From the NCBI GenBank assembly GCA_964549185.1, contig CAZJUI010000002.1:28409-92408 (forward strand): DNA of 64,000 nucleotides, written 5' to 3'. The notes beneath the pieces were generated by a model. That model searched no databases, was not told the origin of the DNA, and saw nothing but the letters and a program-made list of their open reading frames with translations. A program made the position numbers and the translations under genes. Each line of letters starts with the position of its first letter. Position 1 is the first letter of the stretch. This DNA comes from Candidatus Woesearchaeota archaeon. GTDB taxonomy: Archaea > Nanobdellota > Nanobdellia > SCGC-AAA011-G17 > JAGVZF01. Shown piece by piece: positions 361-26,006 of this stretch.

Positions 361-1494
361 CTATTTATCTTTTCTTCCTTTATCTTCCCTGTGCTCAGAA
401 TTACTTTCATCTCTTTTTTCCTCTTTTTTTTCTCCTTTCTCTCCAGAAGCAGCGCTGTTATCACTTCTCTCTTGTTGCTTCTCTTCTTTTTTCTCCTGTC
501 CCTTGTTTACTGGAACATTTGAAGTAGGAACATATTCAACATCTCTTACATGTGATTTTTCTTTCTTTTCCTGCTCTTTATTTACATTATCGTTATTTTT
601 GTTATTTGATTTATTAGAATTATTTTCTTCATGTTTAATTTGATTGTCATCTGCATGCTTATTCTTATGCTCTTCATCTTTTCCATTATTCTCTTTATTA
701 CCATTTTGATTATTATTATCATCAGAAGTTTGATCTTTCCCATTATCTTTTTCTTCCTTATCATCTTTTTTGTCTTGTCCATTATTTTCTTCATTATCAT
801 TAGAACCTTGATCATCATCTTCATTCTCTTCATCATCACTTTCTCTTTCATCATCATCATCATGTTTCTCTTTTCTCTTTTCTTCCTTTACTTCTTTCTT
901 ATCTTCTTTTTCTTTATCATCATCTTCATGAACTGTTGGAGTTAAAACATTAAATGTATCAACTGCATTTAATTTCTTTCCATCAATATAAACATTAAAC
1001 ATGACTCTATAACTTCCAGGATGTAAATTTTCCGGAGTTTGCCACTCAACATGATAAGTTAATCCATCGCTTACTGATTCTTGATATCCATATCCATACC
1101 CGTAACCATATCCATATCCAGGATTATTATAACCATATCCATATCCTAAATTTGTTCCTAACATCCAAATTTGAATATCCTCATAGGTTTTAGGATTATT
1201 CAAACTTCCTTTATATCTTACACACTCATAACTTCCTTTATCATCAATTGAACAAACAAACTTATCAACATGATTTTGTTCTTTCCCATTTTTGTTTGCA
1301 AAATATTCTATTATTAATTCTGCTTTATCAACATGATCACTATTTACATCTATATCAAACTTTAATAATCCGCCCTTGTTAACATCACTAATATTATCAA
1401 TTGACAAAGAATATGCTTTGGCTGGTCCAGCCATTACCAAAACACCCACTACTATGAGTGAAATTATAACTCCGAAGATTTTTTGTTTTTGCAT
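361..1494 (-). CDS. Secreted GYGY-motif protein. It has a signal peptide, a Cys-pair beta domain with a (GY)n stretch, and a C-terminal tail of about 200 aa rich in D/E/K/N.
   Basis: ORF of 377 aa. The N-terminus is hydrophobic and ends in AKA. It is a paralog of 6570..7061 (DVNKG, GSYEC, GYGY, NVLTP motifs). The tail is extremely charged and low-complexity. Confidence 0.75.
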   Translation of the reverse strand: MQKQKIFGVIISLIVVGVLVMAGPAKAYSLSIDNISDVNKGGLLKFDIDVNSDHVDKAELIIEYFANKNGKEQNHVDKFVCSIDDKGSYECVRYKGSLNNPKTYEDIQIWMLGTNLGYGYGYNNPGYGYGYGYGYGYQESVSDGLTYHVEWQTPENLHPGSYRVMFNVYIDGKKLNAVDTFNVLTPTVHEDDDKEKEDKKEVKEEKRKEKHDDDDERESDDEENEDDDQGSNDNEENNGQDKKDDKEEKDNGKDQTSDDNNNQNGNKENNGKDEEHKNKHADDNQIKHEENNSNKSNNKNNDNVNKEQEKKEKSHVRDVEYVPTSNVPVNKGQEKKEEKQQERSDNSAASGEKGEKKEEKRDESNSEHREDKGRKDK

Positions 1495-2139: not shown

Positions 2140-2649
2140 TTAAATTTTATCATCTAAACTTCCTTTGTGTCTATTGATTAATCTTCTTTTAGCATTATTT
2201 ACTTGATATCTTCCAATTTCATAAATGCCGGAAATAACATTGGTAGCTACAGGTAATAATAAAAATTCTTCTTTGCCGTGTCTTGCCAATTGATAATAAC
2301 CAAAAACTTGCATTCCAACTCCGCAAACGCCTGCAAGGATAGAAGACACCGTAATAACATGATCTGTTTTTGTATATATTCTATTTTTTTCTTCCTCTGA
2401 AACTGGCTCTTTAAAATATCTGATTGCACTAGCGATGCTATAAGGAAAAATATTTATTAAAGCCATAATTGCAACAGCTTCCTCCAAAATAGAATTTTTA
2501 AATTTCAAATTTTTAACAGAATCTACAAAATTATTTCCAATCTCTTTAGCAATCTCGCTTTTTGTAGGAACATAATTCTCTGGGTCTACATATTTCTTAA
2601 TTTTCTTTTTATCCACACTTAATTTTCTTAAATCATCATCTATTGGCAT
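2140..2649 (-). CDS. Hypothetical protein. It is a tandem paralog of 2654..3310.
   Basis: ORF of 169 aa. It shares motifs with the neighbouring ORF (IFPYSIA/IIPYAIA, LLPVATNVISGIYE/LIPGITNSVSGVYE). Confidence 0.5.
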   Translation of the reverse strand: MPIDDDLRKLSVDKKKIKKYVDPENYVPTKSEIAKEIGNNFVDSVKNLKFKNSILEEAVAIMALINIFPYSIASAIRYFKEPVSEEEKNRIYTKTDHVITVSSILAGVCGVGMQVFGYYQLARHGKEEFLLLPVATNVISGIYEIGRYQVNNAKRRLINRHKGSLDDKI

Positions 2650-2653
2650 TTTA

Positions 2654-3310
2654 TTAATCTATTTTATTTTCCAAATCTTTTTTATGTTTTTCAATTAGTT
2701 TATTTTTAGCTGCTCTTCTAAGCTCATAAACCCCGGATACAGAATTTGTAATTCCAGGAATTAAAAAAACTTCAGGATGTTTAAATTGAAGTGTCATAAC
2801 AAGATAAGCTATGCCTTGTGTAACTCCTCCTATTAATCCACCAAATAATTGTCCATAAGACTTTGGGTCAAGTAATTTTTTTTCTTTAGTATAAGGAAAT
2901 ACCCGACCTTTTTCTTCATGTATTCTAACATTTGTAGCAATTGCATATGGGATAATATTTGCATAAATTGCCGCACTTAAAAACTGTACAAATCCATACT
3001 CCATATATTTCTTATCATTAACAAAATCTTTTAAACAACTTCCCATCTCTTTAACAATATCTTTATTAGATGGAGCATATTCTTTTTTGACATTATCATC
3101 AATATATTTTTCAATCCTTTTTCTTTTTTCTACAGGCAAATCTTCTAAAACATCATCTATAGTTCTATTACCTTGTTTCTTTTTTCCAAACGCCATATTT
3201 TCATTATGATTAAAAAGATTTATAAAACTATCTATAATAACGACTAACCAGTAAGTAAGATAAATAACATAAATAAAACTTATAAAAATCTTTAAATATA
3301 TCTTTATCAT
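2654..3310 (-). CDS. Hypothetical membrane-associated protein. It is a tandem paralog of 2140..2649.
   Basis: ORF of 218 aa with an N-terminal TM segment. The C-terminal 140 aa are homologous to the neighbouring ORF. Confidence 0.5.
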   Translation of the reverse strand: MIKIYLKIFISFIYVIYLTYWLVVIIDSFINLFNHNENMAFGKKKQGNRTIDDVLEDLPVEKRKRIEKYIDDNVKKEYAPSNKDIVKEMGSCLKDFVNDKKYMEYGFVQFLSAAIYANIIPYAIATNVRIHEEKGRVFPYTKEKKLLDPKSYGQLFGGLIGGVTQGIAYLVMTLQFKHPEVFLIPGITNSVSGVYELRRAAKNKLIEKHKKDLENKID

Positions 3311-4149: not shown

Positions 4150-4904
4150 CAAAAATAATCTATGATGATAAAGTGCTTGTAAAAGGAGCTGTAACAAACT
4201 CTTTGGATAGTTTGACTAATGAACTCTCTAATGATCCTGTAATAAGCTCTAAAGTTTACGATATGTTAACCAATAAAGAATCAAAACAGGAAGATTCTGT
4301 TAAGAAAATAATTGCTGACGAAATGCATGAATTATATATTAAAGCTTCATTATCTCCATTAGAAGAATCCTATAAATTGTTTAAAGATAAGTTAGGCGAA
4401 CTTACAACAAAACACCTATTTTACATTCTAGCTCAAAATTACCCAAAATCTTCTGTTGAACATATTAATAATATCCTTAAAAATGATAAAAATATTGTTT
4501 TGTTGACAAGAATGCCATTACTTTTTTTTAATGCTATTCACACGATGGATGAAAATCAGGAATTTAAAACAGCAATTGAAAAAGAAAGATTAAAAGTCCT
4601 TACACCTTACAATTTCTATCGCAAACATTTCCTAGTTGATGAAAAAAATGCAATAACTCGAGGTTCCATAGATTCAGCATTACTCTTACAGGCATCAAAA
4701 GAATTTCAAGAAGAAAAAAACAATACATTGTACGTTAGTAGTCATCTGAGAGATGTATTATTAATGAGGGAAAATATTACAGAAGATTTAAAAAATACCA
4801 AGATAGTAAAGCATGTTGGAAGTCAACACCCTCCAAAATGTAAATTATTGGATGGATGTTTCCTAGATTTGCTTGAGCTTGAATCATATTTGAAAACAGC
4901 ATGA
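4146..4904 (+). CDS. Hypothetical protein, member 2 of the tandem paralog set.
   Basis: ORF of 252 aa. The start and stop overlap on both sides, which suggests translational coupling. Confidence 0.55.
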   Translation: MTKIIYDDKVLVKGAVTNSLDSLTNELSNDPVISSKVYDMLTNKESKQEDSVKKIIADEMHELYIKASLSPLEESYKLFKDKLGELTTKHLFYILAQNYPKSSVEHINNILKNDKNIVLLTRMPLLFFNAIHTMDENQEFKTAIEKERLKVLTPYNFYRKHFLVDEKNAITRGSIDSALLLQASKEFQEEKNNTLYVSSHLRDVLLMRENITEDLKNTKIVKHVGSQHPPKCKLLDGCFLDLLELESYLKTA

Positions 4905-5698
4905 AAACACATTTAATCTACGATGAAGCTGCATTAACAAAAGGAGCAGTGAACAAAGCATTAGAAAGCACATCCACTTTAATATACTTGTTCGAAAGTT
5001 CTCAAGATTCAAGCTTATTCCATGGTGTTTCAAAAGAAAAAGCAGTAAAAGCAATCTATGTTCAAAGATTATTTCCGGCATTTATTAGAGCCTCTCTTTT
5101 GCCAGAAAAACAAGGCTATCAATCTTTATTATCTGAATTTAAACTTGAAGATGTAGAAGCTATCTCTAGTTTTCTAAAGCAATATTATCCAACAGATTCA
5201 AAAAAGCATATTCTTGATATGTTAAGCAATGACAGAAAGATAACAATAATCACAAGACTTCCCACTTATCTGTTCGCAGAGGTATACAACTTAAACGAAA
5301 AATCTGATTTTTATTTTGCTGTAAAGAATAATAGTCTTGTGATACTTACGCCTTATAATTATTTCCCAAGAAACAGGCTTGCAGTATCTTATACAATGGA
5401 AAATGAAATAATTCAGTATACAGTATCAGAAATATTAAATTCCAGGGCAAAATTAACATTCTTTGTAAATCCATTAATAGATTATATTAAAAGTATCGGC
5501 CACAGCATAAAAGGAATTTCAGAAAACAAGACTACAGTGTTAATTAATGATGAACGTCCTGAAGATACAGAGTTCATAGATCATTACGTTCCGGATTTCG
5601 AGAGATTAGAAGATTTAGTGGAAGTTCAGGAAGTAGATAATCTTAAAGATGTCTTGAATTTTCCATATATAAAAGATAAACCCAATCAAAACCTTTAA
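4901..5698 (+). CDS. Hypothetical protein, member 3 of the tandem paralog set.
   Basis: ORF of 265 aa with N-terminus MKTHLIYDE, identical to member 1. It carries the ITRLPTYLF and LVILTPYNYF motifs. Confidence 0.55.
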   Translation: MKTHLIYDEAALTKGAVNKALESTSTLIYLFESSQDSSLFHGVSKEKAVKAIYVQRLFPAFIRASLLPEKQGYQSLLSEFKLEDVEAISSFLKQYYPTDSKKHILDMLSNDRKITIITRLPTYLFAEVYNLNEKSDFYFAVKNNSLVILTPYNYFPRNRLAVSYTMENEIIQYTVSEILNSRAKLTFFVNPLIDYIKSIGHSIKGISENKTTVLINDERPEDTEFIDHYVPDFERLEDLVEVQEVDNLKDVLNFPYIKDKPNQNL

Positions 5699-5722: not shown

Positions 5723-6556
5723 ATGAAAGAAATCATATTCGGTAATGGTTATCTTGCATCTAGACTAAAAGAGGAATTAAAATATGAAACAGTCTCAAGA
5801 TCTCAGGTAGATACTACGGATTTGTCAAGAGTAAGAAGATTTTTAGATTTAGCAAAGCCTTCAGTTGTGATAAACGCCATCGGATTAACAGGCGGCCCTG
5901 GAGCCAAAGGAATTGACTACTGTGAATTGCATAAAGAACAGACAATAGCATCAAATATTACATCACCAATAAATATTGCAAGCGAATGTTCTTTACGAGA
6001 AATATATTTTGTACATTTTGGAAGCGGTTGTATTTATAATGGATATGAAAAGGCCTGGACAGAAATAGATACCCCAAACTTTTATGGTCCTCAGTTTTAT
6101 GCTAAGACAAAGATAGATGCTGAAAGACTTCTAAATCTTCTTCCACATCCTGGATTAATATTAAGGATAAGAATGCCCATTGATAATAGATCTCATCCAA
6201 GAAATTTAGTTGACAAGCTAAGAAACTATCAGAAAGTTATTGATGCTCAAAACTCAATGACAACAGTCCCGCACATGATAAAAGCCATAAATTATCTTGT
6301 TAATGAAAGAGTAGAAGGAACAGTTAATTTTACAAACCCCGGAACAATATCAGCAGCTGAAATAATGGGATTATATAACAAATTTATTATGTCACATTCA
6401 TTTGGTATAATGTCCTTAAAAGAACTTGATTCAGAAACTATCGGAAAAAGATCAAATTGTGTATTGGATACAACAAAACTAGAGAGTATACTTCCAAATG
6501 CAATAAAGCTTCCCGAAATTCATAAAGCTGTTGAAGAATGTTTAGCTAAATATTAA
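5723..6556 (+). CDS. NAD(P)-dependent sugar reductase or epimerase, similar to RmlD (dTDP-4-dehydrorhamnose reductase).
   Basis: ORF of 277 aa. It has an N-terminal Gly-rich Rossmann motif (IIFGNGYLASRL) and its length and layout resemble the RmlD substrate-binding fold. It lies next to a glycosylation locus. Confidence 0.45.
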   Translation: MKEIIFGNGYLASRLKEELKYETVSRSQVDTTDLSRVRRFLDLAKPSVVINAIGLTGGPGAKGIDYCELHKEQTIASNITSPINIASECSLREIYFVHFGSGCIYNGYEKAWTEIDTPNFYGPQFYAKTKIDAERLLNLLPHPGLILRIRMPIDNRSHPRNLVDKLRNYQKVIDAQNSMTTVPHMIKAINYLVNERVEGTVNFTNPGTISAAEIMGLYNKFIMSHSFGIMSLKELDSETIGKRSNCVLDTTKLESILPNAIKLPEIHKAVEECLAKY

Positions 6557-7061: not shown

Positions 7062-7170
7062 CCCCGTTCATAAAGAACATATTTGTTCAAAATAACGATA
7101 TATAAGCTTTATGCATTACTGATTTCACTTTGCATTAAAATGACATGATTTTTAACTAAAAGTAAGTATT

Positions 7171-7203
7171 AATTTTGAACTAAAACTAATTCTTTTTTAC
7201 TTT
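7171..7203. repeat. Direct repeat, copy 1 of 33 bp. It duplicates the 3' end of the wHTH gene 8599..8922.
   Basis: aatTttgaactaaaactaattcttttttacttt is repeated at 8601..8633 with one mismatch. Confidence 0.8.
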
Positions 7204-7883
7204 AATGCTTTATCACTAGAAACAATTTTACAAATTTTTCCTACTTGCTCTATATCTACATCAAATTTCTTTTCTATGAATACACCTTTAAAAGAATCAA
7301 TAAAATTTTTATCGTTTATAGTATGATCTAACCTCTTAAGATTTTCCTTTATTTTATCTAAATATCCAATAAATAAAAACCTCTTTATTAATCCTAAATC
7401 CGTATCTTTTGCTAATGCTGCTATATCTCTGAAATCTGTCAATCTTCCAGAATGAATTTTCATAACTATCAATAATTCTTTTATCGGTATTTTACCTGAA
7501 ACCTCTTTTTCAACTCCTATGATTTTCCTTTTGATTGAATTATCAGCAAGTAATCTATAACTAAATGAGGCATTTGTTGTTCTCGAGGCTAAGGCATCTA
7601 TTAATATATCAATACTTGCATTATCTTTTTCATATCTCATAAATCTTGAAGAATAAATATTTTTTAGTTCTTTTGAAATAACTTTCTTAAATTTTTCTTT
7701 TGTTAATATTTGTTCAAATTTATTTAAATCTGCACTTTCAATAACAATATCTGCATCGACAGAAAACCTATGCTTGAATGAAGAAACTGCATATCCACCG
7801 ACAATTATAAAATCTAACTTTTTTTCTATAAATTTTTGTAAAATATAAAATATCTCATTTTCTTTCTTTATCAGTTCTTCCAT
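7197..7883 (-). CDS. AbiEii/AbiGii-like nucleotidyltransferase (DUF1814-like toxin).
   Basis: ORF of 228 aa. It has the NTase-fold motif IIVGGYAVSSFKHRFSVDADIV, which matches the GG-T/Y-A...RFSxDxD pattern. It sits directly downstream of a wHTH gene in the same orientation. Confidence 0.55.
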   Translation of the reverse strand: MEELIKKENEIFYILQKFIEKKLDFIIVGGYAVSSFKHRFSVDADIVIESADLNKFEQILTKEKFKKVISKELKNIYSSRFMRYEKDNASIDILIDALASRTTNASFSYRLLADNSIKRKIIGVEKEVSGKIPIKELLIVMKIHSGRLTDFRDIAALAKDTDLGLIKRFLFIGYLDKIKENLKRLDHTINDKNFIDSFKGVFIEKKFDVDIEQVGKICKIVSSDKALK

Positions 7884-7890
7884 TTTATCA

Positions 7891-8529
7891 CTATAAAAAG
7901 TTAGTTTCTCTATATTTTATATTTAAGTTTTTATTATACATTTCATTAATCATTTCTAAAGCTGGTTCAAAATTATATATATTTTTTTGCATAAATCTTA
8001 TTGTTTCATCCAATGGTTCAACCAAAAAATTACCTTTTTTAACATATTTAAATCTTTCTAAAATCTCTGGAGCAAAGAAAACTTTTTTTTTCGAGTTAAC
8101 TTTTAAATCTAATTTTTTACAATATTCTAAAAAGATATCATAATCCGATTTCTTAATTTTAATAAATATTGGATAATATTCTTTGTATCTGGCTACATTA
8201 TATCTTCCTTCAGTCCAGACATAGACTGCATCTGTTTTTGTAAAACAATATTCTATTCCAAATAAACTTAAAATAGAATAATAATGACTAATATCATTAA
8301 AATTATTTTGTATAAACTTTAATATTATTTTGTATGTTGAATTTTCTTTTTGTAAGGTGACTCCGCGCCATCTTTCCTTAAAAATGCCTTCTTTTATTAA
8401 TTCTTCGATCCATTTATGTGTCCAGCCATATGACAATCCAATTCTTTTGGAAATAGAGCTCACGCTATCTTGGTCTCTTGCAGATATCAATATTTTCATT
8501 ACATATGGATTTATCAAGTCAAATTTCAT
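7891..8529 (-). CDS. AbiEi-like antitoxin or transcriptional regulator with an N-terminal wHTH.
   Basis: ORF of 212 aa with an N-terminal HTH (ISKRIGLSYGWTHKWIEELIKEGIF). It is 8 nt upstream of the NTase gene. Confidence 0.45.
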   Translation of the reverse strand: MKFDLINPYVMKILISARDQDSVSSISKRIGLSYGWTHKWIEELIKEGIFKERWRGVTLQKENSTYKIILKFIQNNFNDISHYYSILSLFGIEYCFTKTDAVYVWTEGRYNVARYKEYYPIFIKIKKSDYDIFLEYCKKLDLKVNSKKKVFFAPEILERFKYVKKGNFLVEPLDETIRFMQKNIYNFEPALEMINEMYNKNLNIKYRETNFL

Positions 8530-8598
8530 ACTATCACTATAATGATACTATATAAAAACCTTTCTATTATCTTATTTTATATAAAATACTTTAAATTA

Positions 8599-8922
8599 TC
8601 AATGTTGAACTAAAACTAATTCTTTTTTACTTTGTTTCTCAATTTCTGAATCAACAACACTCCAATAATAATTAATAAATTTTTCAACTTGCGGATTTTC
8701 CCTGTTTAATTTATACATCTTTGCTTTTCCAACATCTCTCGTATGATTAACTATCTTTCTCTTAACAAAATCTTTCCATATTTCTTTTAAACTAGTATAA
8801 CTTATTTCTGAAAACTTAGCAATATCTCTCATAGAATAATCAAATTCAGAATGAACTATCAAAAAGTTCCAGATCCTGTTTCTTACAGTATTTCCTTCTA
8901 GTTTTAAAAACAATTTTTTCAT
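8599..8922 (-). CDS. Winged-helix transcriptional regulator.
   Basis: ORF of 107 aa with an HTH-like core (MRDIAKFSEISYTSLKEIWKDF). Its last 10 codons lie inside repeat copy 2. Confidence 0.45.
   Translation of the reverse strand: MKKLFLKLEGNTVRNRIWNFLIVHSEFDYSMRDIAKFSEISYTSLKEIWKDFVKRKIVNHTRDVGKAKMYKLNRENPQVEKFINYYWSVVDSEIEKQSKKELVLVQH
8601..8633. repeat. Direct repeat, copy 2 of 33 bp.
   Basis: It matches 7171..7203 and encodes ...KKELVLVQH plus the stop of 8599..8922. Confidence 0.8.
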
Positions 8923-9031: not shown

Positions 9032-9427
9032 TCATATTTTTATTCCAAGTTTAATTTCGTCATATCTTAATATAGGTTTTGCAAGTTTTCTACTTGTTTT
9101 TTCTTTTATGATCTCTATTAATCCTACATCTTTTAATATTTTTATATCAGTGGTAATGCTTTTTCTATCTCTTTTTGCTATTCTTGAAAGCTCATAAATT
9201 GATTTTGGTTTATTTAATTTTATTAAATGTAAAAGTTCTAATCTCTTTTTAGTTAAAGTTTTTTTGAACAATTCTAGATTATCAAAAGATACACTAGTCT
9301 CACTCTTCGGAAATATGCCTTTATCTAAATCTTTAAATACTTTCTCAGTCCTATCCCAAAATGCATTTGAGGGTTCTATTCTTACATTAATTTCCTTTGT
9401 TTTTATTACCATTTTCCATTTCTCCAA
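9032..9427 (-). CDS. HTH transcriptional regulator. It is the putative antitoxin-like partner of 9387..9716.
   Basis: ORF of 131 aa with a C-terminal wHTH (KPKSIYELSRIAKRDRKSITTDIKILKDVGLIEI). It overlaps the upstream small ORF by 41 nt. Confidence 0.45.
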   Translation of the reverse strand: MEKWKMVIKTKEINVRIEPSNAFWDRTEKVFKDLDKGIFPKSETSVSFDNLELFKKTLTKKRLELLHLIKLNKPKSIYELSRIAKRDRKSITTDIKILKDVGLIEIIKEKTSRKLAKPILRYDEIKLGIKI

Positions 9428-9716
9428 CTTCTTTTCTAAATTTTTTTATTAAATCATATATATTTGTAAATTCATATTTGAATTCTTTTTCATAAATATG
9501 TTTATGATGTCCTTTTGAAGCCTCATTATCATATCCCAATATTCTTTTTCCATTTCTTATTAAAACCAATGCATATCTTATTCCTTCTGGGAATTTATCA
9601 CTCTTAGGAACCTTTGTAATTTTTATTTCTGTTATATAATTATTAAAAACTTTTTTAGTATGGTAAATCACTTTAGTTGTAATTACTATCACCATACAGG
9701 GTAAAGTATAACCCAT
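9387..9716 (-). CDS. Small hypothetical protein. It is the putative toxin-like partner of the HTH gene.
   Basis: ORF of 109 aa with a conserved-looking His cluster (ASKGHHKHIYEKEF). It overlaps the following HTH regulator, which is a two-gene arrangement typical of TA modules. Confidence 0.35.
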   Translation of the reverse strand: MGYTLPCMVIVITTKVIYHTKKVFNNYITEIKITKVPKSDKFPEGIRYALVLIRNGKRILGYDNEASKGHHKHIYEKEFKYEFTNIYDLIKKFRKEVGEMENGNKNKGN

Positions 9717-9828
9717 ATATAAACTTTATTATTCTATAAAATATTAATTAAAACATTCAATAAAAACCCTTATTTCCCTAGACCTTACGTCCACAACATT
9801 TATATACTACTTCGTCTTACTTAGTAAT

Positions 9829-10086
9829 ATGGAATCTATAACTATAAAACTGGACAACGAATTTGCTAAAGATGTGAAGAAAGCTCTAAAAAAACATAAC
9901 TATACTACAAAAACAGAATTCATAAGAGAATCAATGAGGCTTAGATTAAAAGACTTAGAAAAGGAAGAAGCATTAAAACGCGTAAATGCAATGTACGGAT
10001 CTTTAAAACATAAAAAAATAACCGATAAAAGACTTCATGAAGCAAGACAAAGAGCAGTAGAAGAACTAGAGAAAGAACTTAAATAA
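9829..10086 (+). CDS. Ribbon-helix-helix (CopG/Arc-like) protein, antitoxin-like.
   Basis: ORF of 85 aa. N-terminus ITIKLDNEFAKDVKKALKK followed by helices, which is an RHS... RHH pattern. Confidence 0.5.
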   Translation: MESITIKLDNEFAKDVKKALKKHNYTTKTEFIRESMRLRLKDLEKEEALKRVNAMYGSLKHKKITDKRLHEARQRAVEELEKELK

Positions 10087-10480
10087 TTTCTTCAGGTTTT
10101 TTAGTCTCTACAATGTTAACCAATGCTTTAAAATGAGAATCTCTTGAAATCATTATTGCATCGTTATCTCTTGCAAGAATCGCTTGCCAAGCATCTCCTA
10201 TTGGAATTCTTTTCTGATAAGCTATTTGTTTTGCTTCTTTTAATTGCTCTTTTGTAGTATGAACATATCTAAGGTTATTTGGTTTAACAATTGTAAAAAT
10301 AGAGTTAATTTCATCCATGCTACAACCGAAATCTCTTAATTCTTTTATATGAATATTGGAATATATAATTCTAGAATCTTCTTCAATAATCTTTATTATT
10401 AACTTTAAAGCACCCTCTCCATTCTCTCCCCGCTTCATACCAAAATCCAGCCAAATTGATGTATCAAGATTATATATCAT
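10079..10480 (-). CDS. PIN-domain nuclease, VapC-like.
   Basis: ORF of 133 aa with the motifs LDTSIWLDF, DAWQAILA and ISRDSHF. It is convergent with the RHH gene and overlaps it tail-to-tail by 8 bp. Confidence 0.6.
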   Translation of the reverse strand: MIYNLDTSIWLDFGMKRGENGEGALKLIIKIIEEDSRIIYSNIHIKELRDFGCSMDEINSIFTIVKPNNLRYVHTTKEQLKEAKQIAYQKRIPIGDAWQAILARDNDAIMISRDSHFKALVNIVETKKPEEII

Positions 10481-10604
10481 ACTAAGTATAATGCCAAAAA
10501 ATTTAAATTACTATCTAAAGTCCTGAACTTCACATCCGCAACATTTAAAAACATCTAAATAACTAGTTTATCATATATATTCTAAAAGGGGCGATGAGGT
10601 AATT

Positions 10605-11588
10605 ATGAAAGCAAAAAAAACCCCTAAAAAAAGTATAAAACTAGTTGTAATAATTCCAGCCTATAATGAAGCTAACTCTCTTCCTATTGTACTTAAAAAT
10701 ATTCCTAAAAGATTATTGGGAATAAAAGAAGTTCAAGTTGTTGTCATAGATGATGGAAGTGATGATTCAACAGCTGATATAGCACGTTCATTTAACGCTC
10801 TCGTTCTTTCTAACGGAAGAAATATGGGTGTTGGTTATTCTTTCCAGAAAGGACTTGAAAAAGCAATTGAATTACATGCTGATATCCTAGTTAACATGGA
10901 TGCAGATGGACAATTTTCTCCATTAGATATTGAAAAACTAGTCTATCCAATATTAGAAGGCAAAGCAGACATGGTTACAGCTTCTAGATTTAAAGATAAA
11001 AGTTTAACTTACAAAATGCCTTTTATCAAGAAATATGGAAATAAAGCTTTTATTTACTTGATTAATACTCTTACTCATAAAAAATTTACAGATGTTACAT
11101 GTGGTTTTCGCTCTTATTCAAAAGAAGCAATGCTTAACTTAACTGTATTTGGCCAGTTTACTTATACTCAGGAAGTATTTCTTGATCTAGCTTCTAAGAA
11201 TATGAAGATAATTGAAGTTCCTATAAAAGTATTTCCAAGAACATCTGGGAAGAGTAAGGTTACTAAATCATTGATTAAGTATATATTTAATTCTAATTTG
11301 ATTGTTATGAAAGCTTTTCGTGATTATCAGCCTTTAACTTTTTTTGGTTTGATTGGATTGTTTTTTTTCTCTTTTGGATTTTTTGTTGATTTTATATTGT
11401 TTATTAGATGGCTTTCTATTCATAGAACATCTCCTTATGAGACTTTAGTTAATATAGGAATATTTTCAATGATATTTGGATTTTTGCTTATTGTGTTAGC
11501 TTTATTGGCTGATATGCTTGATAGGCAAAGAAGGTTAAATGAAAGAATACTTTATTATCAGAGAAGAAATATGAATGGGTTTAAGTAA
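10605..11588 (+). CDS. GT2 glycosyltransferase, dolichyl-phosphate mannose/glucose synthase-like (DPM1/GtrB type), with C-terminal TM segments.
   Basis: ORF of 327 aa with motifs VVIIPAYNE, VVVIDDGSDDST and DADGQF. There are two C-terminal TM helices and a strong SD (ggggcgatgaggt). Confidence 0.8.
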   Translation: MKAKKTPKKSIKLVVIIPAYNEANSLPIVLKNIPKRLLGIKEVQVVVIDDGSDDSTADIARSFNALVLSNGRNMGVGYSFQKGLEKAIELHADILVNMDADGQFSPLDIEKLVYPILEGKADMVTASRFKDKSLTYKMPFIKKYGNKAFIYLINTLTHKKFTDVTCGFRSYSKEAMLNLTVFGQFTYTQEVFLDLASKNMKIIEVPIKVFPRTSGKSKVTKSLIKYIFNSNLIVMKAFRDYQPLTFFGLIGLFFFSFGFFVDFILFIRWLSIHRTSPYETLVNIGIFSMIFGFLLIVLALLADMLDRQRRLNERILYYQRRNMNGFK

Positions 11589-16162: not shown

Positions 16163-17518
16163 ATGAAAAAATCAATAAAGCCAATAAAGATAATAATCTT
16201 AATAGTTTTAGTTATTTTAGTTTTAACATTATTTTATTTAAATATAAAGCCATTTGGTGGATCAGTAAGATATTCAAAAATAATAAATCAAGAAAATACA
16301 TTATTACCTCAAGATAGGATATCTGAAATTAAAACAGAAGGAAATATAAAATACCAAGAAGCTTTAGCAGATTTAATTTATACAGATATTTCAACTCCAG
16401 GTGATATTAATGAAGACATATTACTTAAAATAAGATTTAAGGATAATTTTCCTAAAGATTCTAAAATATCTGTTGGAATACAAGATAAAGAAAATCATTA
16501 TAATCAACAAACAGCTTATATTAAAGTTCCAAATGAAAAAGTAATCTCTTCAGATAGTATAAATCAAATTCCAGAAAATTCAATAGTCTACATTGATGAT
16601 ATAAATTTGATAGTTAATAATCAAAACATAATATCAGGGGAAATAAAACCATTAGACCTTCAACCTTTTTTAAGAGGAAGTTATAATATCTTAATATATT
16701 TAGATGGAGATTTATCATTTACAGTCAAACAACAAGACCTAAATTGGTATAATAATACAGATGAAACGAATATTACATTAAAAGACAGTAAAGATAATAT
16801 ATTAACATCTGTAACTATAGAAGATGATAATGATAATAAAAATGATAGAAAATTACATGACCCAAGACAAGCAACATTAACATATCCCAATTTACAGGGA
16901 ATATACAAAATAGAAATAAGAAACAATGAAGATTCTATAATAACAGAAATTCAATCATCAACAGATAAAATAATATTTTTAAATAAATTATTTTTAGCAG
17001 CCTCAAAAAATTATGTTAATAATGATGATCAATTTTCACAAGTTTATTTTAATATAATAAAAGACACAAACATATCTTTGTCAACACCACACAAACAATA
17101 CGAACAAAACATTCAAATCAACAACATCTCATATAAAGTTCCATATCAACAAAAGAATACAATAACACTACCCCAAGGTTCATACAATCTCTTATCATTC
17201 AACTCTAATATTATAGTAGAAGGTAACACTTACTTTGCATTTAATAAAGATTCATTATTCAATCCATATAAGTTTACAATAACAAAGAACATAGCGGAGG
17301 CAGATTACATAATAACAAACTATATTCCTCCAATAGAAGACAATGGATGGTTAATATCAACTGTTAAGTTTAATCTTAGTGATTTATACATAAAAGACAA
17401 CAAATTAAACGTTTTAATTAACATTCCTCATCTAGCTAAGAATGAAACTAAGAACTACACTATTCCTATTGATTACATTGAACTAGAATATTACAAAAAG
17501 CCTTTATTCTCTAGATAG
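16163..17518 (+). CDS. Membrane-anchored or secreted hypothetical protein, rich in Asn and Ile. Its 3' 250 bp is the founding copy of a three-copy repeat.
   Basis: ORF of 451 aa with an N-terminal TM segment (IKIIILIVLVILVLTLFYL). Confidence 0.55.
   Translation: MKKSIKPIKIIILIVLVILVLTLFYLNIKPFGGSVRYSKIINQENTLLPQDRISEIKTEGNIKYQEALADLIYTDISTPGDINEDILLKIRFKDNFPKDSKISVGIQDKENHYNQQTAYIKVPNEKVISSDSINQIPENSIVYIDDINLIVNNQNIISGEIKPLDLQPFLRGSYNILIYLDGDLSFTVKQQDLNWYNNTDETNITLKDSKDNILTSVTIEDDNDNKNDRKLHDPRQATLTYPNLQGIYKIEIRNNEDSIITEIQSSTDKIIFLNKLFLAASKNYVNNDDQFSQVYFNIIKDTNISLSTPHKQYEQNIQINNISYKVPYQQKNTITLPQGSYNLLSFNSNIIVEGNTYFAFNKDSLFNPYKFTITKNIAEADYIITNYIPPIEDNGWLISTVKFNLSDLYIKDNKLNVLINIPHLAKNETKNYTIPIDYIELEYYKKPLFSR
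17265..17518 (+). repeat. Repeat copy 1, about 250 bp. It is the intact 3' coding end of 16163..17518.
   Basis: Homologous to 18247..18486 and 19489..19733. Confidence 0.85.
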
Positions 17519-17570
17519 AAAGGTTTATAAGTAAGATAATCTTACAGTAAGATTAGGAGGTGAAAGGAAA

Positions 17571-17840
17571 ATGGAAGTCGAAACAACTAAAATGTCATCT
17601 AAAGGACAAATTGTAATACCCCAAGATATAAGGGAAGATATAGAAGCTACAGAAGGAACTATATTTGCTGTTACACATAATAAAGATACAATAATTTTAA
17701 AAAAAATGGAAAAGCCATCAAAAGAATTTATATTAAAAGAAATCGAGAAAATGGCCAAAGAAAATAGAAAATACTTAGAAAGCAAAGGATTTACAGAAAA
17801 AGATGTTATGGAAAAAATCCTAAAATCAAGAGGAAAATAA
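17571..17840 (+). CDS. AbrB/MazE/SpoVT-type antitoxin, VapB-like.
   Basis: ORF of 89 aa with the swapped-hairpin motif KGQIVIPQDIREDI. It has a strong SD (aggaggtga). Confidence 0.6.
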   Translation: MEVETTKMSSKGQIVIPQDIREDIEATEGTIFAVTHNKDTIILKKMEKPSKEFILKEIEKMAKENRKYLESKGFTEKDVMEKILKSRGK

Positions 17841-17843
17841 ACT

Positions 17844-18245
17844 ATGAATGTGGTCTTAGATACAAACGTTCTTATATCTTTAAGTGTATGGGAAACAAGC
17901 GAAGCAAAAAAATTACTTGATGAGTTAGTTCATAAAAATATAAACATATTTTCCTCAGAAGAAATTAAATTTGAATATGTAAAAGTTTTAAGAAGAGATT
18001 TTGAATTATCAGATAATAGAATTGAAGAAATGTTAGAAAAAATATTTTTCTATATAGATTTCGTAGAACCAGCAGAAAAAGTAGATATTGTAAAAGATGA
18101 TCCTACAGATAATAAGATAATAGAATGTGCAATAGCTTCTAATTCTGAGTATATAATAACTTATGACAAACATTTATTAGATATTAAAAAATTTAGAAAC
18201 ATCAAGATGATAAAACCAAAAGAAGCATTTCAAGTTATAAAATAA
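17844..18245 (+). CDS. PIN-domain toxin, VapC.
   Basis: ORF of 133 aa with motifs MNVVLDTNVLI and IITYDKHLL. It lies 4 nt after the antitoxin. Confidence 0.7.
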   Translation: MNVVLDTNVLISLSVWETSEAKKLLDELVHKNINIFSSEEIKFEYVKVLRRDFELSDNRIEEMLEKIFFYIDFVEPAEKVDIVKDDPTDNKIIECAIASNSEYIITYDKHLLDIKKFRNIKMIKPKEAFQVIK

Positions 18246-18246
18246 T

Positions 18247-18486
18247 CATATAAGTTTACAATAACAAAGAACATAGCAGAAGCAGATTACATAATAACAA
18301 ACTATCAGCCTCCAATAGAAGACAATGGATGGTTAATATCAACTGTTAAGTTTAATCTTAGTGATTTATACATAAAAGACAATAAAACGTTTTAATTAAC
18401 ATTCCACATCTAGCTAAGAATGAAACAAAGAACTACACAATTACATAGAATTAGAATATTACAAGAAACTCTTATTCTCTAGATAA
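18247..18486 (+). repeat. Repeat copy 2. It is a decayed copy of the 3' end of 16163..17518, with deletions and a frameshift.
   Basis: About 90% identical to copy 1 but has two internal deletions. It starts immediately after the PIN stop codon. Confidence 0.85.
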
Positions 18487-18529
18487 AAACCGAAACATTT
18501 ATATAACAGTTGTTATATTATTATTACAT

Positions 18530-19060
18530 ATGTTACAAAATTATAACAAGTGGAAATTATTAAAAGTATTTTTTGAAGATCCTTTAAAAGAAGGTGGTTT
18601 TCAATTAAGAGAACTTAGCAGAAAAATAAAACTAGCTCCAATTTCAGTAAAACTATATCTAAATGAATTAGTTAAAGACAATTTAATAAAAAAATCAACG
18701 CTTCATAATTACCCAATATATCAAGCTAATCGAGATAATGAAAAATTTCTGCTATTTAAGAAAATAGATACAATTATTTTAATAAAAGAGTTTAATCTAA
18801 TAGATTACCTAAATGATAAATGTCTGCCATCCGTAATAATTCTTTTTGGAAGTGCCTCAAAAGGTGAAGATTTAAAAGATAGTGATATAGATATATTTGT
18901 TCAGGCAAAAGAATCAAAATTAGATTTACAAGAATTCGAAACTAAATTAAAACGAAAGATTAATATATTTTTCTCTGATAACTTTAATAATTTAAGTAAA
19001 GAATTAAAAAACAATATGTTGAACGGCATTATTTTAAAGGGATATTTAAAGGTATTTTAG
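18530..19060 (+). CDS. Minimal nucleotidyltransferase (MNT-type), the partner of a HEPN-like protein.
   Basis: ORF of 176 aa with the motif IILFGSASKGEDLKDSDIDIFV, which matches GSx10DxD. It has an N-terminal HTH-like region. Confidence 0.7.
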   Translation: MLQNYNKWKLLKVFFEDPLKEGGFQLRELSRKIKLAPISVKLYLNELVKDNLIKKSTLHNYPIYQANRDNEKFLLFKKIDTIILIKEFNLIDYLNDKCLPSVIILFGSASKGEDLKDSDIDIFVQAKESKLDLQEFETKLKRKINIFFSDNFNNLSKELKNNMLNGIILKGYLKVF

Positions 19061-19474
19061 ATGATAGAAGGAATAATAAGGATAACTCCAGATAAAGAGA
19101 AAGCAAAATCTATAAAGAAGATGTCAGAGATAACATCAGAAATGATAAAAACTATAGATATAGAAAGATTTCCCTCAAATATATTAAAAGATTATTATGA
19201 TGTAATTAGAGAATTGATAACAGCGATTCTCCTTTTAGACGGATATAAATTTATTGGAGAAGAAGCTCACAAAAAATCAATACAATATATAGAACAAAAT
19301 TATAATGAATTTACAAAATATGAAATAGTAATGTTAGATGATTTAAGAATATTAAGGAATAAAGTAGCATATGATGGATTTTTTATAAAGAAGGAATACA
19401 TTCAAGAAAGAATAAAAGAAATACTCAATATTATAAATAAGTTAAATAAGATAATAATTGCAAAATTAGAATAA
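19061..19474 (+). CDS. HEPN-like protein, the partner of the MNT.
   Basis: ORF of 137 aa starting 1 nt after the MNT stop. It is helical, but the canonical Rx4-6H motif is not clear. LRNKVAYDG is the only candidate. Confidence 0.45.
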   Translation: MIEGIIRITPDKEKAKSIKKMSEITSEMIKTIDIERFPSNILKDYYDVIRELITAILLLDGYKFIGEEAHKKSIQYIEQNYNEFTKYEIVMLDDLRILRNKVAYDGFFIKKEYIQERIKEILNIINKLNKIIIAKLE

Positions 19475-19488
19475 TAATCCATATAAAT

Positions 19489-19733
19489 ATCAAATAACAA
19501 AGAACATAGCAGAAGCAGATTACATAATAACAAACTATCAGCCTCCAATAGAAGACAATGGATGGTTAATATCAACTGTTAAGTTTAATCTTAGTGATTT
19601 ATACATAAAAGACAATAAACTAAACGTTTTAATTAACATTCCTCATCTAGCTAAAAATGAAACAAAGAACTATACTATTCCTATAGATTACATAGAGCTA
19701 GAGTATTATAAGAAGCCTTTATTCCAACGATAA
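19489..19733 (+). repeat. Repeat copy 3. It is a near-intact copy of the 3' end of 16163..17518.
   Basis: It could still encode ...ITKNIAEADYIITNYQPPIEDNGWLISTVKFNLSDLYIKDNKLNVLINIPHLAKNETKNYTIPIDYIELEYYKKPLFQR*. Copies 2 and 3 share variants (gcagaagcag, cagcctcc) that are absent from copy 1. Confidence 0.85.
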
Positions 19734-19825
19734 TATTAAGAAATATATCTTGCTATCACTTCTCACATCTCACACATTTCACATATGCGCGTAAAGTTTA
19801 TAAATGAGTATTATTTAGTATATTT

Positions 19826-25286: not shown

Positions 25287-25289
25287 TTA

Positions 25290-25676
25290 TTAATAAGATA
25301 TAACTTTAACATCATCAATTCTAGAAAAATGTTGTTTATTATTTGTTATTATTATATTACAATTATTTTTTAACATTATTGCAGATATTAAACAGTCATT
25401 TTGTCCGATCATTTTTCCCTTTTTAGCTAGATCAGATAGAATTTTAGCAGCATTTCTCCCCCAATTATTATTACATAAGATTTTTATAGTTTCAAAAAAG
25501 GATAAAGCAATTTCTTCTTCATTTTTATTAAATTTTTTATTATAAATTCCAAAAAAAACTTCAAAAACATTAATCTCTGTAGTTGCAATGTCTTCTTTAT
25601 ATCTTTCTATAACATTTTTAGCTTCTTTATTTCCATTTAAAAAATCAATAATGCAATCAGAGTCTATACATATCAT
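25290..25676 (-). CDS. PIN-domain toxin, VapC.
   Basis: ORF of 128 aa with motifs MICIDSDCIIDFL, NDCLISAIML and ITNNKQHF. Confidence 0.65.
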   Translation of the reverse strand: MICIDSDCIIDFLNGNKEAKNVIERYKEDIATTEINVFEVFFGIYNKKFNKNEEEIALSFFETIKILCNNNWGRNAAKILSDLAKKGKMIGQNDCLISAIMLKNNCNIIITNNKQHFSRIDDVKVISY

Positions 25677-25912: not shown

Positions 25913-25934
25913 ACACATACACATACACATACAT
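25911..25934. repeat. Hexanucleotide microsatellite, (ATACAC)3 plus ATACAT.
   Basis: The sequence reads atacacatacacatacacatacat. It sits at the junction between the TA cassette and the right-hand flanking repeat. Confidence 0.9.
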
Positions 25935-25965
25935 CTATATAAACTTTTCTATCAAAGAACTTCTC

Positions 25966-26006
25966 TCATCTAAATTTCATGGAATATTAAACTTCATTCC
26001 TGAATA
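25966..26006. repeat. Direct repeat, copy 2. It duplicates the 3' end of the flippase gene.
   Basis: It matches 25246..25286. Confidence 0.8.

Follow-up and report, generated by a model that had tools for sequence, protein, structure and literature searches.

A Two-Gene AbiE/MenAT-like Module of DPANN Archaea Lies between Two Copies of a Neighbouring Gene's 3' End

Introduction

Which genes lie between the two copies of a gene end found on a contig of a Candidatus Woesearchaeota archaeon, and by what process did they come to lie there? The locus is part of a stretch of 64,000 nucleotides (contig CAZJUI010000002.1, positions 28,409 to 92,408), here called the window, and all positions are given in its numbering. 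A first-pass annotation had described an AbiE-like cassette, made of a winged helix-turn-helix (wHTH) gene and a nucleotidyltransferase (NTase) gene, inserted at the stop codon of another wHTH gene between 33-bp direct repeats; it was counted as the third such case in the window, and a shared insertion mechanism was proposed. We find that the minus strand of 7225-8576 holds a copy of a discrete module, two genes in size, that DPANN archaea exchange horizontally.

Results

A Duplicated Gene End Brackets Two Genes

The 33-bp direct repeat (7171-7203 / 8601-8633) is present with its single mismatch, 7174 T versus 8604 G, and a repeat search extends it to 40 nt with three mismatches (7164-7203 vs 8594-8633), of which 29 nt match without a break (7175-7203 = 8605-8633). 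When the window was simulated 30 times with a third-order Markov model, exact direct repeats grew to at most 17-21 nt per simulation; a 29-nt exact match is therefore not explained by chance. The pair does bracket two minus-strand genes, 8529..7891 (212 aa) and 7883..7197 (228 aa). It is also correct that the copy at 8594-8633 carries the 3' end of the neighbouring 107-aa wHTH gene, with 11 codons at the 40-nt extent in place of the ten first counted, and the TGA stop of that gene (8599-8601) lies inside it.

The second copy is an orphan. It reads in frame as KKELVLVQN-TAA, against KKELVLVQH-TGA in the first, and a TAA stop at the equivalent position occurs naturally in the allele of the 107-aa gene carried by the relative L071. 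The first-pass annotation would have been undermined by a repeat scattered over many unrelated loci; the sequence was found nowhere else save in homologues of the 107-aa gene's end. Since frame and stop are kept, the TAA variant is natural and the repeat is confined to such homologues, we regard the second copy as an allele remnant: the 40-nt repeat is most likely the displaced 3' end of a resident 107-aa allele, rather than a target-site duplication produced by an enzyme that the element encodes. The same copy supplies the NTase stop codon (7197-7199), in a frame different from that of the orphan end.

The cassette does not start right at the neighbour's stop codon, as had been supposed. The neighbour's module continues for about 17-22 nt past the stop (to ~8577-8583), and its tail meets the cassette at 8577/8576. 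Repeat and cassette are thus not in contact: 17-22 nt belonging to the neighbour's module intervene at one end, and 21 nt of filler, coding for a non-homologous NTase tail, VSSDKAL, at the other. The repeat search detected no terminal inverted repeats at the cassette, which shows none of the marks of a transposon or IS element (a fixed abutting duplication, terminal inverted repeats, a transposase). A similarity between the end of the NTase gene (7209-7227) and an intergenic half-operator (7884-7902) was judged to be at chance level. The features are collected in Table 1.

Table 1. Features of the cassette locus and of other repeat-flanked cassettes in the window
Feature	Positions	Strand	Remarks
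107-aa wHTH gene	8599..8922	-	Neighbour, intact; belongs to its own widely shared DPANN module
Repeat copy 1	8594..8633	-	Last 11 codons, TGA stop and 5 nt of the intact 107-aa wHTH gene
Post-stop tail of the 107-aa module	8577..8598	-	Homologous to L071/L083 up to ~8583
Cassette 5' end	8530..8576	-	BRE/TATA-like box at ~8550-8564 and 20-nt imperfect palindrome at 8530-8549
Partner, wHTH protein, 212 aa	7891..8529	-	First gene of the pair
Pol-beta-type nucleotidyltransferase, 228 aa	7197..7883	-	Second gene of the pair
Junction filler	7204..7224	-	Separates repeat copy 2 from the point where cassette homology ends (~7225)
Repeat copy 2	7164..7203	-	Orphan remnant of the same gene end; frame kept, TAA at 7169-7171
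Conserved upstream region of the 163-aa secreted-protein gene	7062..7166	-	Common to L071 and L081
PIN/RHH cassette	9775..10546	-	Diverged 26-nt flanking repeat, 10520-10546 / 9775-9801; weaker pair
Three copies of the last ~250 nt of gene 16163..17518	17261-17521 / 18243-18489 / 19476-19736	+	Bracket PIN and MNT/HEPN-type cassettes
Flippase gene 3' end, duplicated beyond a PIN cassette	25229-25304 / 25950-26025	+	

The Module Is Sharply Bounded and Shared among DPANN Archaea

Homologues of the NTase number 678 and those of its partner 515, mostly at 65-77% identity, and the two genes lie side by side in 51 of the 53 GTDB species loci, all from DPANN archaea. Across 49 independent loci in unrelated contexts, DNA homology begins 40-70 nt upstream of the ATG and stops within -30 to +15 nt of the NTase stop. 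A gap of 7 nt separates the two genes in the window, and at most loci they overlap or directly adjoin each other. The family is large, spans Pacearchaeota, Woesearchaeota and Nanoarchaeota at 65-77% identity and is essentially unannotated; the NTase clade is small (340 clusters at 50% identity), archaeal and mostly from DPANN. No relative was found in IMG/VR, and the literature that we searched describes neither this protein family nor repeat-flanked TA cassettes in DPANN archaea.

Homologues of the 107-aa gene number 259 (70-93% identity) and vary at their ends; the gene shows no linkage to the NTase cassette in 49 other loci. It was rejected as a third component of the system because it is absent from these 49 other cassette loci, and the 104-aa gene upstream of the cassette in L016, considered as its counterpart, proved to be unrelated.

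At the 5' end of the cassette, the palindrome adjoins the ATG, and its consensus, ACTATCAYTATARTGATAGT, is kept across loci and stands next to the ATG in nearly all of them. From the sequence, we read the BRE/TATA-like box and the palindrome as a predicted leaderless promoter with an operator.

The NTase Is a Distant Relative of AbiEii

The NTase carries VGGYAVSSFKHRFSVDADIV. The signature that the first-pass annotation had quoted for it is present and combines the general Pol-beta motif with the arginine of motif II; the residues V28-G29-G30 ... R39-F-S-V-D43-A-D45 are all invariant in alignment A1. Motif I/II of AbiEii proteins is hG[GS]-x-DhD with an arginine within motif II (Dy et al. 2014, PMC3985639), and the window NTase has this AbiEii-typical arginine (R39-x3-D43-x-D45). 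The spacing x between the two motifs is 15 in AbiEii and 9-13 in other Pol-beta NTases (PMC3985639); the window NTase has 12 residues (Y31-V42) and lacks the longer AbiEii spacing. AbiEii motifs III and IV, near the C-terminus, are a KLxAaxxR-like lysine/arginine and +DxxD (PMC3985639). They are partly matched by the invariant K142-IHSG-R147-LT-D150-F-R152-D153, which holds the K...R pair and a DxxD, with a shorter K-R spacing and no basic residue before D150. The protein also has a C-terminal helical domain.

A search against Pfam AbiEii (PF08843 / DUF1814), as the first-pass annotation had proposed, gave a divided answer. The window NTase reaches 15.0 bits (E 0.024), below the gathering threshold of 22.5 bits, and scores about equally against NTP_transf_5 and DUF6036; all 20 of 20 close family members match AbiEii weakly, with a best E of 3.2e-4. 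Distant members of the clade, fetched with the family profile, pass the Pfam cut-off: P0505 at 35.9 bits, over profile positions 13-224 of 238, P0443 at 29.3, P0437 at 25.9 and P0424 at 22.6. Because these distant members pass and the window protein stays below the cut-off, it is by transitivity only that the NTase is placed in the AbiEii superfamily, of which, to judge by its profile relatives, it is a divergent clade member.

The nearest structures point the same way through weak matches. The sole PDB sequence match of the NTase is the MenT/AbiEii toxin 8an4 (MenT1; E 0.15), and the best Foldseek matches, which are not significant, are to Rv1045 TglT/MenT3 (7c46, 6j7r). The AlphaFold models of both proteins of the pair are mediocre (pLDDT 66.6 and 56.8), and PADLOC returned nothing for the NTase.

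The Partner Shows No Match to AbiEi Families

The 212-aa protein has an N-terminal wHTH of the order H-H-H-strand-strand (residues 8-59), modelled with a pLDDT of 80-91, and a conserved stretch of 130 C-terminal residues with a pLDDT below 50. Its proposed identity as AbiEi was not borne out: AbiEi families gave no match at E up to 1 for 7891..8529 or for any of 26 family members, and a profile search of the PDB at E up to 10 returned only Sso10a (E 0.15) and no AbiEi or Rv2827c structures.

In AbiE/MenAT systems (AbiEi, COG5340, with AbiEii, DUF1814, PF08843; MenT1-4 of M. tuberculosis), which are of types IV (or VII), the operon is likewise bicistronic, with the wHTH gene first and the NTase gene second, and an inverted repeat lies at the promoter. 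The window module has both the regulator-first bicistron and the promoter inverted repeats, the palindrome being the predicted operator. What stands of the AbiE-like description is therefore the gene order, the tight operon and the promoter palindrome, together with a transitive link of the NTase to AbiEii; the partner has no detectable similarity to AbiEi families or to Rv2827c. Since the NTase is below threshold and the partner lacks AbiEi similarity, the module is AbiE/MenAT-like in its logic but is not a member of the family.

MNT-HEPN and minimal-NTase TA pairs are abundant in archaea, and an MNT/HEPN-type pair is present in the window at 18530-19474. They resemble our module in pairing an NTase of Pol-beta fold with a second gene in a TA-like operon; unlike them, the module has no HEPN partner, and its NTase is larger and bears AbiEii-type motifs. 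The NTase of MNT-HEPN pairs is the antitoxin, whereas the NTase described here is most likely the toxin.

By analogy with AbiE/MenAT, then, the NTase is likely a toxin and the 212-aa protein likely an autorepressor and antitoxin. The NTase would arrest growth, probably by nucleotidylating an RNA such as the acceptor end of a tRNA; the wHTH protein would repress the operon at the palindrome and counteract the toxin; and the pair could thereby stabilise itself or abort virus infection.

The Locus Is a Hot Spot of TA Cassettes

The site lies between a conserved sugar-biosynthesis/glycosyltransferase block and the secreted-protein gene, whose upstream region (7062..7166) is the right-hand anchor. 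The relatives L071/L082, in which the 107-aa gene is 93% identical, and L081 share the anchors and hold other cassettes: ParE, PIN/RHH and DUF433, or HicAB plus a 209-aa gene. With different TA cassettes occupying one place in close relatives, the site is a TA-cassette hot spot. L084 has a 107-aa gene of 91% identity and, after it, an almost identical cassette copy attached at another junction, so a donor-like arrangement exists.

An exact empty site, in which the 163-aa gene would come directly after the 107-aa gene, was not found in the relatives retrieved. Look-ups of the exact 107-aa, NTase and 163-aa proteins recovered just short contigs with this same arrangement; scanning metagenomes with the 163-aa protein turned up two relatives, both with other cassettes; and close 107-aa homologues led to L083 and L084, which are informative, neither being an empty site. 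The comparison that the first-pass annotation had called for thus yielded different cassettes at the spot and no exact empty site, and the reading as an inserted cassette draws on those syntenic relatives, on sharp boundaries over 49 loci and on a repeat confined to homologues of the neighbour's gene end. Nearby, L071 has two additional cassettes at a site whose unoccupied form is the interval 10480-10620 of the window: a glycosyltransferase promoter segment is single in the window and triplicated around two cassettes in L071, and the one copy against three makes an occupied/empty pair for the neighbouring cassettes.

Displacement of the Gene's 3' End Would Account for the Repeat

Homology-anchored recombination of a discrete mobile AbiE/MenAT-like module, by '3'-end displacement' and not by transposition or an integron, is the explanation that we favour for the locus, with slightly better than even confidence. 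Donor DNA would have carried a related allele of the 107-aa gene followed by the NTase module. Homologous recombination within the 107-aa gene, or upstream of it, would have anchored this DNA, and its far end would have joined illegitimately 32 nt before the stop codon of the resident gene, a process of homology-facilitated illegitimate recombination. The product would be an intact gene upstream and an orphan gene end past the cassette, with the NTase frame running out of the module and terminating in the orphan copy.

The other cassettes of the window for which gene-end repeats had been claimed do carry them, at 17261-19736 and 25229-26025. Among copies of the NTase cassette, flanking repeats scoring at least 15 occur in 4 of 49 loci against 0 of 591 control pairs, and repeats scoring at least 11 in 11 of 49 against 2.9 expected; about 42 of the 49 copies have no detectable flanking repeat. 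Repeat pairs spaced by 300-3000 nt in 469 kb comprise 41 direct and 3 inverted ones. Taking copies of this cassette and other TA cassettes together, the flanking repeats are 19 to 525 nt long.

This recurrence weighs against a local accident, that is, slippage or a small tandem duplication plus unrelated rearrangements, independent of the arrival of the cassette. We hold such an origin to be extremely unlikely: a single short pair is present and no empty site is available, as it would allow, but the pair brackets the module within ~20 nt on either side, its 29-nt exact match is far past chance, and the same geometry is seen at other copies of the cassette and at other cassettes.

The longer repeats differ in an informative way. 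In the D1 repeat of the window, differences fall at codon positions 1/2/3 as 3/3/14, and in the ABC-ATPase end of L058 as 7/8/30; pooled, 44 of 65 differences are at the third codon position (P = 1.9e-4 against a model of in-situ duplication and decay), and the long copies keep open frames. They look like diverged functional alleles and not like fresh target duplications. For the 40-nt repeat, the allele reading is borrowed from these longer ones, three differences in 40 nt being too few for a codon-position test. The third-position changes are not adenine-specific and the neighbouring ORFs hold no reverse transcriptase, and a DGR template/variable repeat was rejected on these grounds for the 249-nt repeats.

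The downstream repeat copy begins exactly 6 nt before the end of the NTase stop codon in the window, in L036 and in L052. A random illegitimate junction does not predict an offset common to these three loci, a point against displacement; the fixed offset may have been selected because it ends translation promptly, or a process with more specificity may lie behind it.

The boundaries of four repeat families were compared for the common core that the first-pass annotation had suggested; none is shared, the comparison giving just TATA-like k-mers. GTTCAGG-like strings were seen by eye at a few junctions, an observation with no statistic attached. No tRNA or small RNA was found at the repeats (ARAGORN, window and 11 loci; Rfam, window), the only tRNA found by Rfam in the window lying at 53598-53685, and a tRNA gene end as attachment site was rejected because the repeats of the window and 11 loci have none. 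The proposed shared mechanism holds in the sense of a shared process; dedicated machinery does not fit the missing core, the 19-525 nt range and the allele-like long copies.

An enzyme acting in trans, such as a transposase or a casposase-like nuclease, could in principle have made the repeat as a target-site duplication through staggered cuts, and have inserted the other TA cassettes of the window as well. Locus-specific direct repeats around the same cassette in several unrelated loci, the shared offset from the NTase stop in three of them, the excess of direct over inverted pairs and the nearby occupied/empty pair are what it would produce. Nevertheless, repeats of such different lengths do not suit a fixed stagger, nor does a repeat that fails to abut the cassette; the boundaries show neither terminal inverted repeats nor a shared core; long copies differing mainly at third codon positions are unlike a once-identical duplicate; and most copies of the cassette have no detectable repeat. 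Around 26 window ORFs scanned against Pfam include no transposase or integrase, the sole mobility-related match being a LAGLIDADG ORF. We therefore regard this origin as very improbable.

An attC site, 57-141 nt long, is an imperfect palindrome that bears R''/R' cores and folds in single-stranded form, and a CALIN is a cluster of attC sites without an integrase (IntI). Much about the modules described here is integron-like: they are small, promoter-proximal and TA-rich, they have sharp boundaries with an ORF ending at the boundary, and they occur in arrays whose order is shuffled between relatives. A ~45-nt palindromic element recurs behind the same cassette in L020, L023, L024 and L034 and punctuates the cassette boundaries of the arrays, which indicates that an integron-like route exists for some copies; moreover, integrons and CALINs enriched in TA cassettes have been reported in Nanoarchaeota/DPANN MAGs (PMC9668308). 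At the window locus itself, repeats serving as attC-like sites for an IntI-type recombinase in trans are difficult to credit, and we rate this origin as a slight chance. Its repeat regions (7110-7230 and 8540-8660) fold no better than shuffles on either strand when judged by DNA folding (z 0.0 to -1.0); the L034-type palindrome does not occur in the window; the repeats are different gene ends, coding sequence of the neighbours, with no common core; cassettes stand in both orientations (for example, the PIN cassette 25290-25676 and the L058 cassette); and no tyrosine recombinase is found among the ~26 ORFs scanned.

The same product as that of displacement would result from a Campbell-type single crossover of a circle bearing the same short homology. 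A small circle with one 40-nt gene-end copy, integrating and excising by host homologous recombination, would explain variable repeat lengths and allele-like differences alike. Glycosyltransferase promoter fragments travel with cassettes between strains, and L079 and L080 (from two samples) and L083 carry repeat-flanked cassette junctions that are circularly permuted with respect to L071. Yet such junctions could equally be those of tandem arrays or of alternative gene orders in other strains, and the exact-protein look-ups gave no circle junction for this cassette. Furthermore, 40 bp is short for efficient homologous recombination, and the origin of the first repeat is left unexplained, which makes this course of events unlikely. 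Against displacement, in turn, it must be counted that we know of no work on recombination in DPANN archaea.

Discussion

The scar that displacement would leave has a precedent. The same scar is described at Rhs, CDI and T6SS effector loci, for which homology-facilitated illegitimate recombination was proposed (PMC5361080): the incoming module brings a copy of the conserved neighbour and displaces the old gene end, and repeats of the process build arrays (PMC5361080). The triple copy D1 of the window and the triple copy of L071 look just so. The displaced ends differ, being here those of a small wHTH gene, a membrane protein, a flippase, an ABC ATPase and a glycosyltransferase promoter. Unlike those loci, ours have no polymorphic-toxin constant region, the cassettes being autonomous TA operons with their own promoters, and the hosts are DPANN archaea, in which the process is not described in the literature searched.

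A broader and more speculative picture, which we put forward as an outside possibility, is that DPANN archaea may run an integrase-free cassette economy, in which small TA operons carry short stretches of gene ends or promoters, taken from conserved host genes, as portable homology attachment sites. Cassettes would insert, be excised as circles and re-insert by host recombination, giving integron-like shuffled arrays that have neither attC nor IntI. The NTase module, open at its 3' boundary and with its frame closed by whatever flank it lands in, would be among the most successful passengers.

The family would extend the AbiE/MenT-type nucleotidyltransferase toxins into DPANN archaea and pair them with a putative antitoxin/regulator from a new sequence family. 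Taken together, the repeats offer a testable picture of how defence and addiction modules are exchanged in genome-reduced, host-dependent archaea: exchange appears to run through recombination anchored in neighbouring genes, which leaves orphan gene ends behind. Such orphan-end scars could be used to mark, date and trace cassette traffic in metagenomes, and integrase-free cycling, if true, would be a new route of gene mobility.

The repeat and its surroundings

The window has a G+C content of about 27% and encodes proteins matching those of Pacearchaeota, Woesearchaeota and Nanoarchaeota MAGs, which places its source among the DPANN archaea. A repeat search recovered the 33-bp direct repeat that had been proposed from the sequence alone, at 7171-7203 and 8601-8633 with a single mismatch, and extended it to 40 nt with three mismatches and an exact core of 29 nt, exceeding the longest exact direct repeat (at most 21 nt) in 30 third-order Markov simulations of the window. 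One copy ends the intact 107-aa winged-helix (wHTH) gene (copy 1) and the other is an orphan gene end beyond the cassette (copy 2). There is a gap between the repeat and the cassette on both sides: copy 1 is separated from the cassette by about 17-22 nt belonging to the 107-aa gene's own module, and copy 2 by 21 nt of filler. Rather than occurring at many unrelated loci, the 40-nt sequence is restricted to 107-aa gene ends and the orphan copy. This part of the window is densely packed with TA modules: a TumE/wHTH pair directly upstream of the 107-aa gene is followed by a PIN/RHH pair.

Coordinates of the cassette, the repeats and other features (window unless a locus is named)
Feature	Position	Strand	Details
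107-aa wHTH gene	8922..8599	minus	last 11 codons, TGA stop and 5 nt form copy 1
212-aa ORF (partner)	8529..7891	minus
228-aa ORF (NTase)	7883..7197	minus	stop codon 7197-7199 within copy 2, in a different frame
Copy 1	8594-8633	minus	reads KKELVLVQH-TGA
Copy 2	7164-7203	minus	reads KKELVLVQN-TAA, same frame as copy 1
TumE toxin (PF20126) and HVO_A0114-type wHTH	9032-9716	minus
PIN/RHH pair	9829-10480
LAGLIDADG_3 homing-endonuclease ORF	22884-23804	plus	free-standing, 306 aa, between polysaccharide-synthesis genes
Repeated segments	36862-37561		two adjacent, ~60-100 nt, ~500-nt spacing, in or near ORFs 36106-37119 and 37101-37583
tRNA	53598-53685	minus	88 nt; ARAGORN tRNA-Pyl (CTA); Rfam tRNA 57.9 bits
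L058 repeat	2575-3099, 4810-5334		NTase cassette between full ABC-ATPase gene and truncated copy of its last 175 codons
L071 glycosyltransferase start-plus-promoter copies	733-915, 1679-1853, 2385-2481		one more after each cassette (101-aa/107-aa; ParE)
L049 G+C-rich element AGCGAGCCCGAAGGGCGAGCG	3211-3231, 4707-4727, 5859-5880		adjacent G-runs
L084 extra stretch	454-612		52-aa lysine-rich ORF plus ~110 nt between 107-aa gene and cassette promoter
Palindromic element, L034	624-645, 2481-2502, 3593-3614, 4749-4770		GTTTACAC adjoining AAAGTATATCC-loop-GGATATACTTT; sites include directly after NTase stop
Palindromic element, L020	4448-4469		plus GTGTAAAC at 4472, 5573, 5687, 5815
Palindromic element, L023	4691-4712
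Palindromic element, L024			just after NTase stop

The NTase and its partner

The cassette had been called AbiE-like in the first-pass annotation. Searched directly against Pfam, the NTase gave sub-threshold matches only (DUF6036, E 3e-4; NTP_transf_5; AbiEii, E 0.024), and it had no match in PADLOC or NCBIfam. Its family is large and unusually uniform, the majority of 678 homologues being 70-77% identical, with invariant residues that include VGGYAVS..HRFSVDAD and K142..R147..D150-F-R152-D153. By definition, AbiEii proteins have motifs I and II spaced by 15 residues, with a motif II arginine, as well as a motif III of the K/R type and a motif IV of the form +DxxD (Dy et al. 2014, PMC3985639); the NTase has motifs I and II with the arginine, a spacing of 12, and only partial matches to motifs III and IV. 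The family profile gave one weak PDB sequence match, to the MenT/AbiEii toxin 8an4 (E 0.15), and the best Foldseek matches of the AlphaFold model (pLDDT 66.6), to Rv1045 TglT/MenT3, were not significant. The clade is compact: when 1.84 billion cluster representatives were searched exhaustively with the profile, only 340 proteins reached E <= 1e-3. The Pfam AbiEii threshold was passed by 4 of 10 distant full-length members, and P0505, a protein from this search, scored 35.9 bits over nearly the whole AbiEii model. Together, the motifs, the weak MenT/AbiEii matches and these distant members place the NTase, transitively, in a divergent archaeal clade of the AbiEii superfamily, outside the family as Pfam defines it.

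Homologues of the partner (n = 515) are almost all precisely 212 aa long. Structure prediction gave a confident N-terminal winged helix, and the conserved C-terminal domain could not be modelled. Neither an AbiEi family nor a solved AbiEi structure came up as similar in family and PDB searches. The AbiE-like label suits the architecture and, transitively, the NTase, but not the partner.

Mobility of the cassette and its hot spot

The cassette is mobile and occupies a hot spot. Its two genes adjoin in 51 of 53 GTDB species loci, the remaining two being cut by contig ends, and the loci have unrelated surroundings, which include other TA pairs, restriction-modification genes and housekeeping genes. 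When 49 independent loci were compared by all-against-all BLASTN, homology began 40-70 nt 5' of the first ATG and stopped between -30 and +15 nt relative to the NTase stop. The common 5' part comprises a BRE/TATA-like box together with a 20-nt palindrome, ACTATCAYTATARTGATAGT, that abuts the start codon; the two are predicted to form a leaderless promoter with operator. Since the 3' boundary falls inside the last NTase codons, the C-terminal tails are variable; in the window copy homology ends about 24-30 nt 5' of the stop, the tail VSSDKALK stemming from the junction. Comparison with the near-identical cassette of contig L084 sets the 5' boundary at exactly 8576. L084 also carries an additional stretch upstream of the cassette promoter (see table), which the window does not have.

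The closest relatives are contigs L071/L082 (107-aa gene 93% identical) and L081 (86% identical in the 163-aa secreted-protein gene on the far side of the cassette), which, like the window, carry sugar-biosynthesis genes on the flank and the 163-aa gene together with the region upstream of it. Between these anchors L071 contains ParE, PIN/RHH and DUF433 cassettes and L081 contains PIN/RHH, HicAB and a 209-aa gene, and the order of cassettes varies among these relatives. The exact empty site, with the 107-aa gene directly adjoining the 163-aa gene, was not found in any genome searched.

Repeats at other cassettes

Other copies of the NTase cassette are flanked by direct repeats of 19-30 nt (L016, L036, L049, L052), by a repeat of 525 nt (L058) or by a palindromic element (L034). 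Flanking repeats were clearly enriched: a score of at least 15 was reached at 4 of 49 cassette loci versus none of 591 control pairs, and a score of at least 11 at 11 of the 49 versus 2.9 expected. Between the two L058 copies (91% identity) the 45 differences fall 7/8/30 at codon positions 1/2/3, and the truncated ABC-ATPase copy has a new signal-peptide-like N-terminus fused on. Different cassettes are bracketed in the same manner: in the window, three copies of a 250-nt gene end enclose a PIN cassette and one of MNT type, and a PIN cassette has a flippase gene end on either side; in L005 a 79-nt repeat flanks a ParE cassette; in L071 a 175-nt glycosyltransferase start-plus-promoter segment is triplicated around two cassettes, the cassette/segment junction lying right after GTTCAGG, and window 10480-10620 is the single-copy, unoccupied state of this segment. 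Across the window and loci (58 non-redundant sequences, 469 kb), among repeats at least 20 nt long and 300-3000 nt apart, 41 pairs were direct and only 3 inverted.

Many direct pairs enclose small cassettes (e.g., L019, L025, L047, L054 and L059), and the three copies of the G+C-rich element in the otherwise A+T-rich contig L049 bracket the NTase cassette plus the next gene. The segments repeated at window 36862-37561 are likely a tandem gene-segment duplication unrelated to TA cassettes.

A dedicated insertion enzyme leaving transposition-type duplications appears quite improbable, as the repeats spread over 19-525 nt in length and are different neighbouring sequences, whose ends, compared at the cassette boundaries for a short consensus, have no common core; attC-like folding was not seen at either junction of the window's cassette, nor was a tRNA found at any repeat in the window and 11 loci. 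Integron recombination, which we consider equally improbable, finds a likeness in a ~45-nt palindromic element that follows the same NTase cassette in L020, L023, L024 and L034, recurs at cassette boundaries in arrays with 1.1-1.9 kb spacing, and resembles the attC clusters (CALINs) reported for Nanoarchaeota (PMC9668308); this element is absent from the window. The window's only tRNA is probably a mis-typed archaeal tRNA with an intron.

Origin of the orphan gene ends

In long orphan copies the reading frame stays open and the stop is retained, and most differences from the functional counterpart fall at third codon positions (3/3/14 at positions 1/2/3 for the window's repeated end of gene 16163..17518; 44 of 65 pooled, P = 1.9e-4 even against a model with one copy under selection and the other drifting). 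The orphan ends thus have a history as coding sequence of a different genome, and the long ones look like diverged alleles united by recombination. For the 40-nt repeat, to which the codon-position test is not directly applicable, the frame and stop of copy 2, its TAA being the variant in L071's allele, and the donor-like arrangement of L084 from another strain (107-aa gene, then the same cassette, with a different junction) fit this reading. The best reading, with somewhat better than even confidence, is that the repeat represents the neighbour's gene end from a displaced allele: homology-anchored recombination at the neighbouring gene would displace the allele beyond the cassette.

The closest alternative, Campbell-type cycling through the repeat, seems unlikely. 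L079 and L080 (two samples) and L083 contain circularly permuted junctions of repeat-flanked cassettes relative to L071, these short contigs reading ParE-repeat-101-aa/107-aa cassette or 107-aa gene-repeat-101-aa gene, which is compatible with excised circles, tandem arrays or alternative strain gene orders. In three loci (the window, L036 and L052) the downstream repeat copy begins at the same offset, exactly 6 nt before the NTase stop codon ends; this offset may reflect selection to terminate promptly an ORF that the module boundary leaves open, or could alternatively hint at a more specific process.

Neither the NTase cassette family nor the recombination process has previously been described in this lineage (DPANN) in the literature searched, and both are variations on known kinds.
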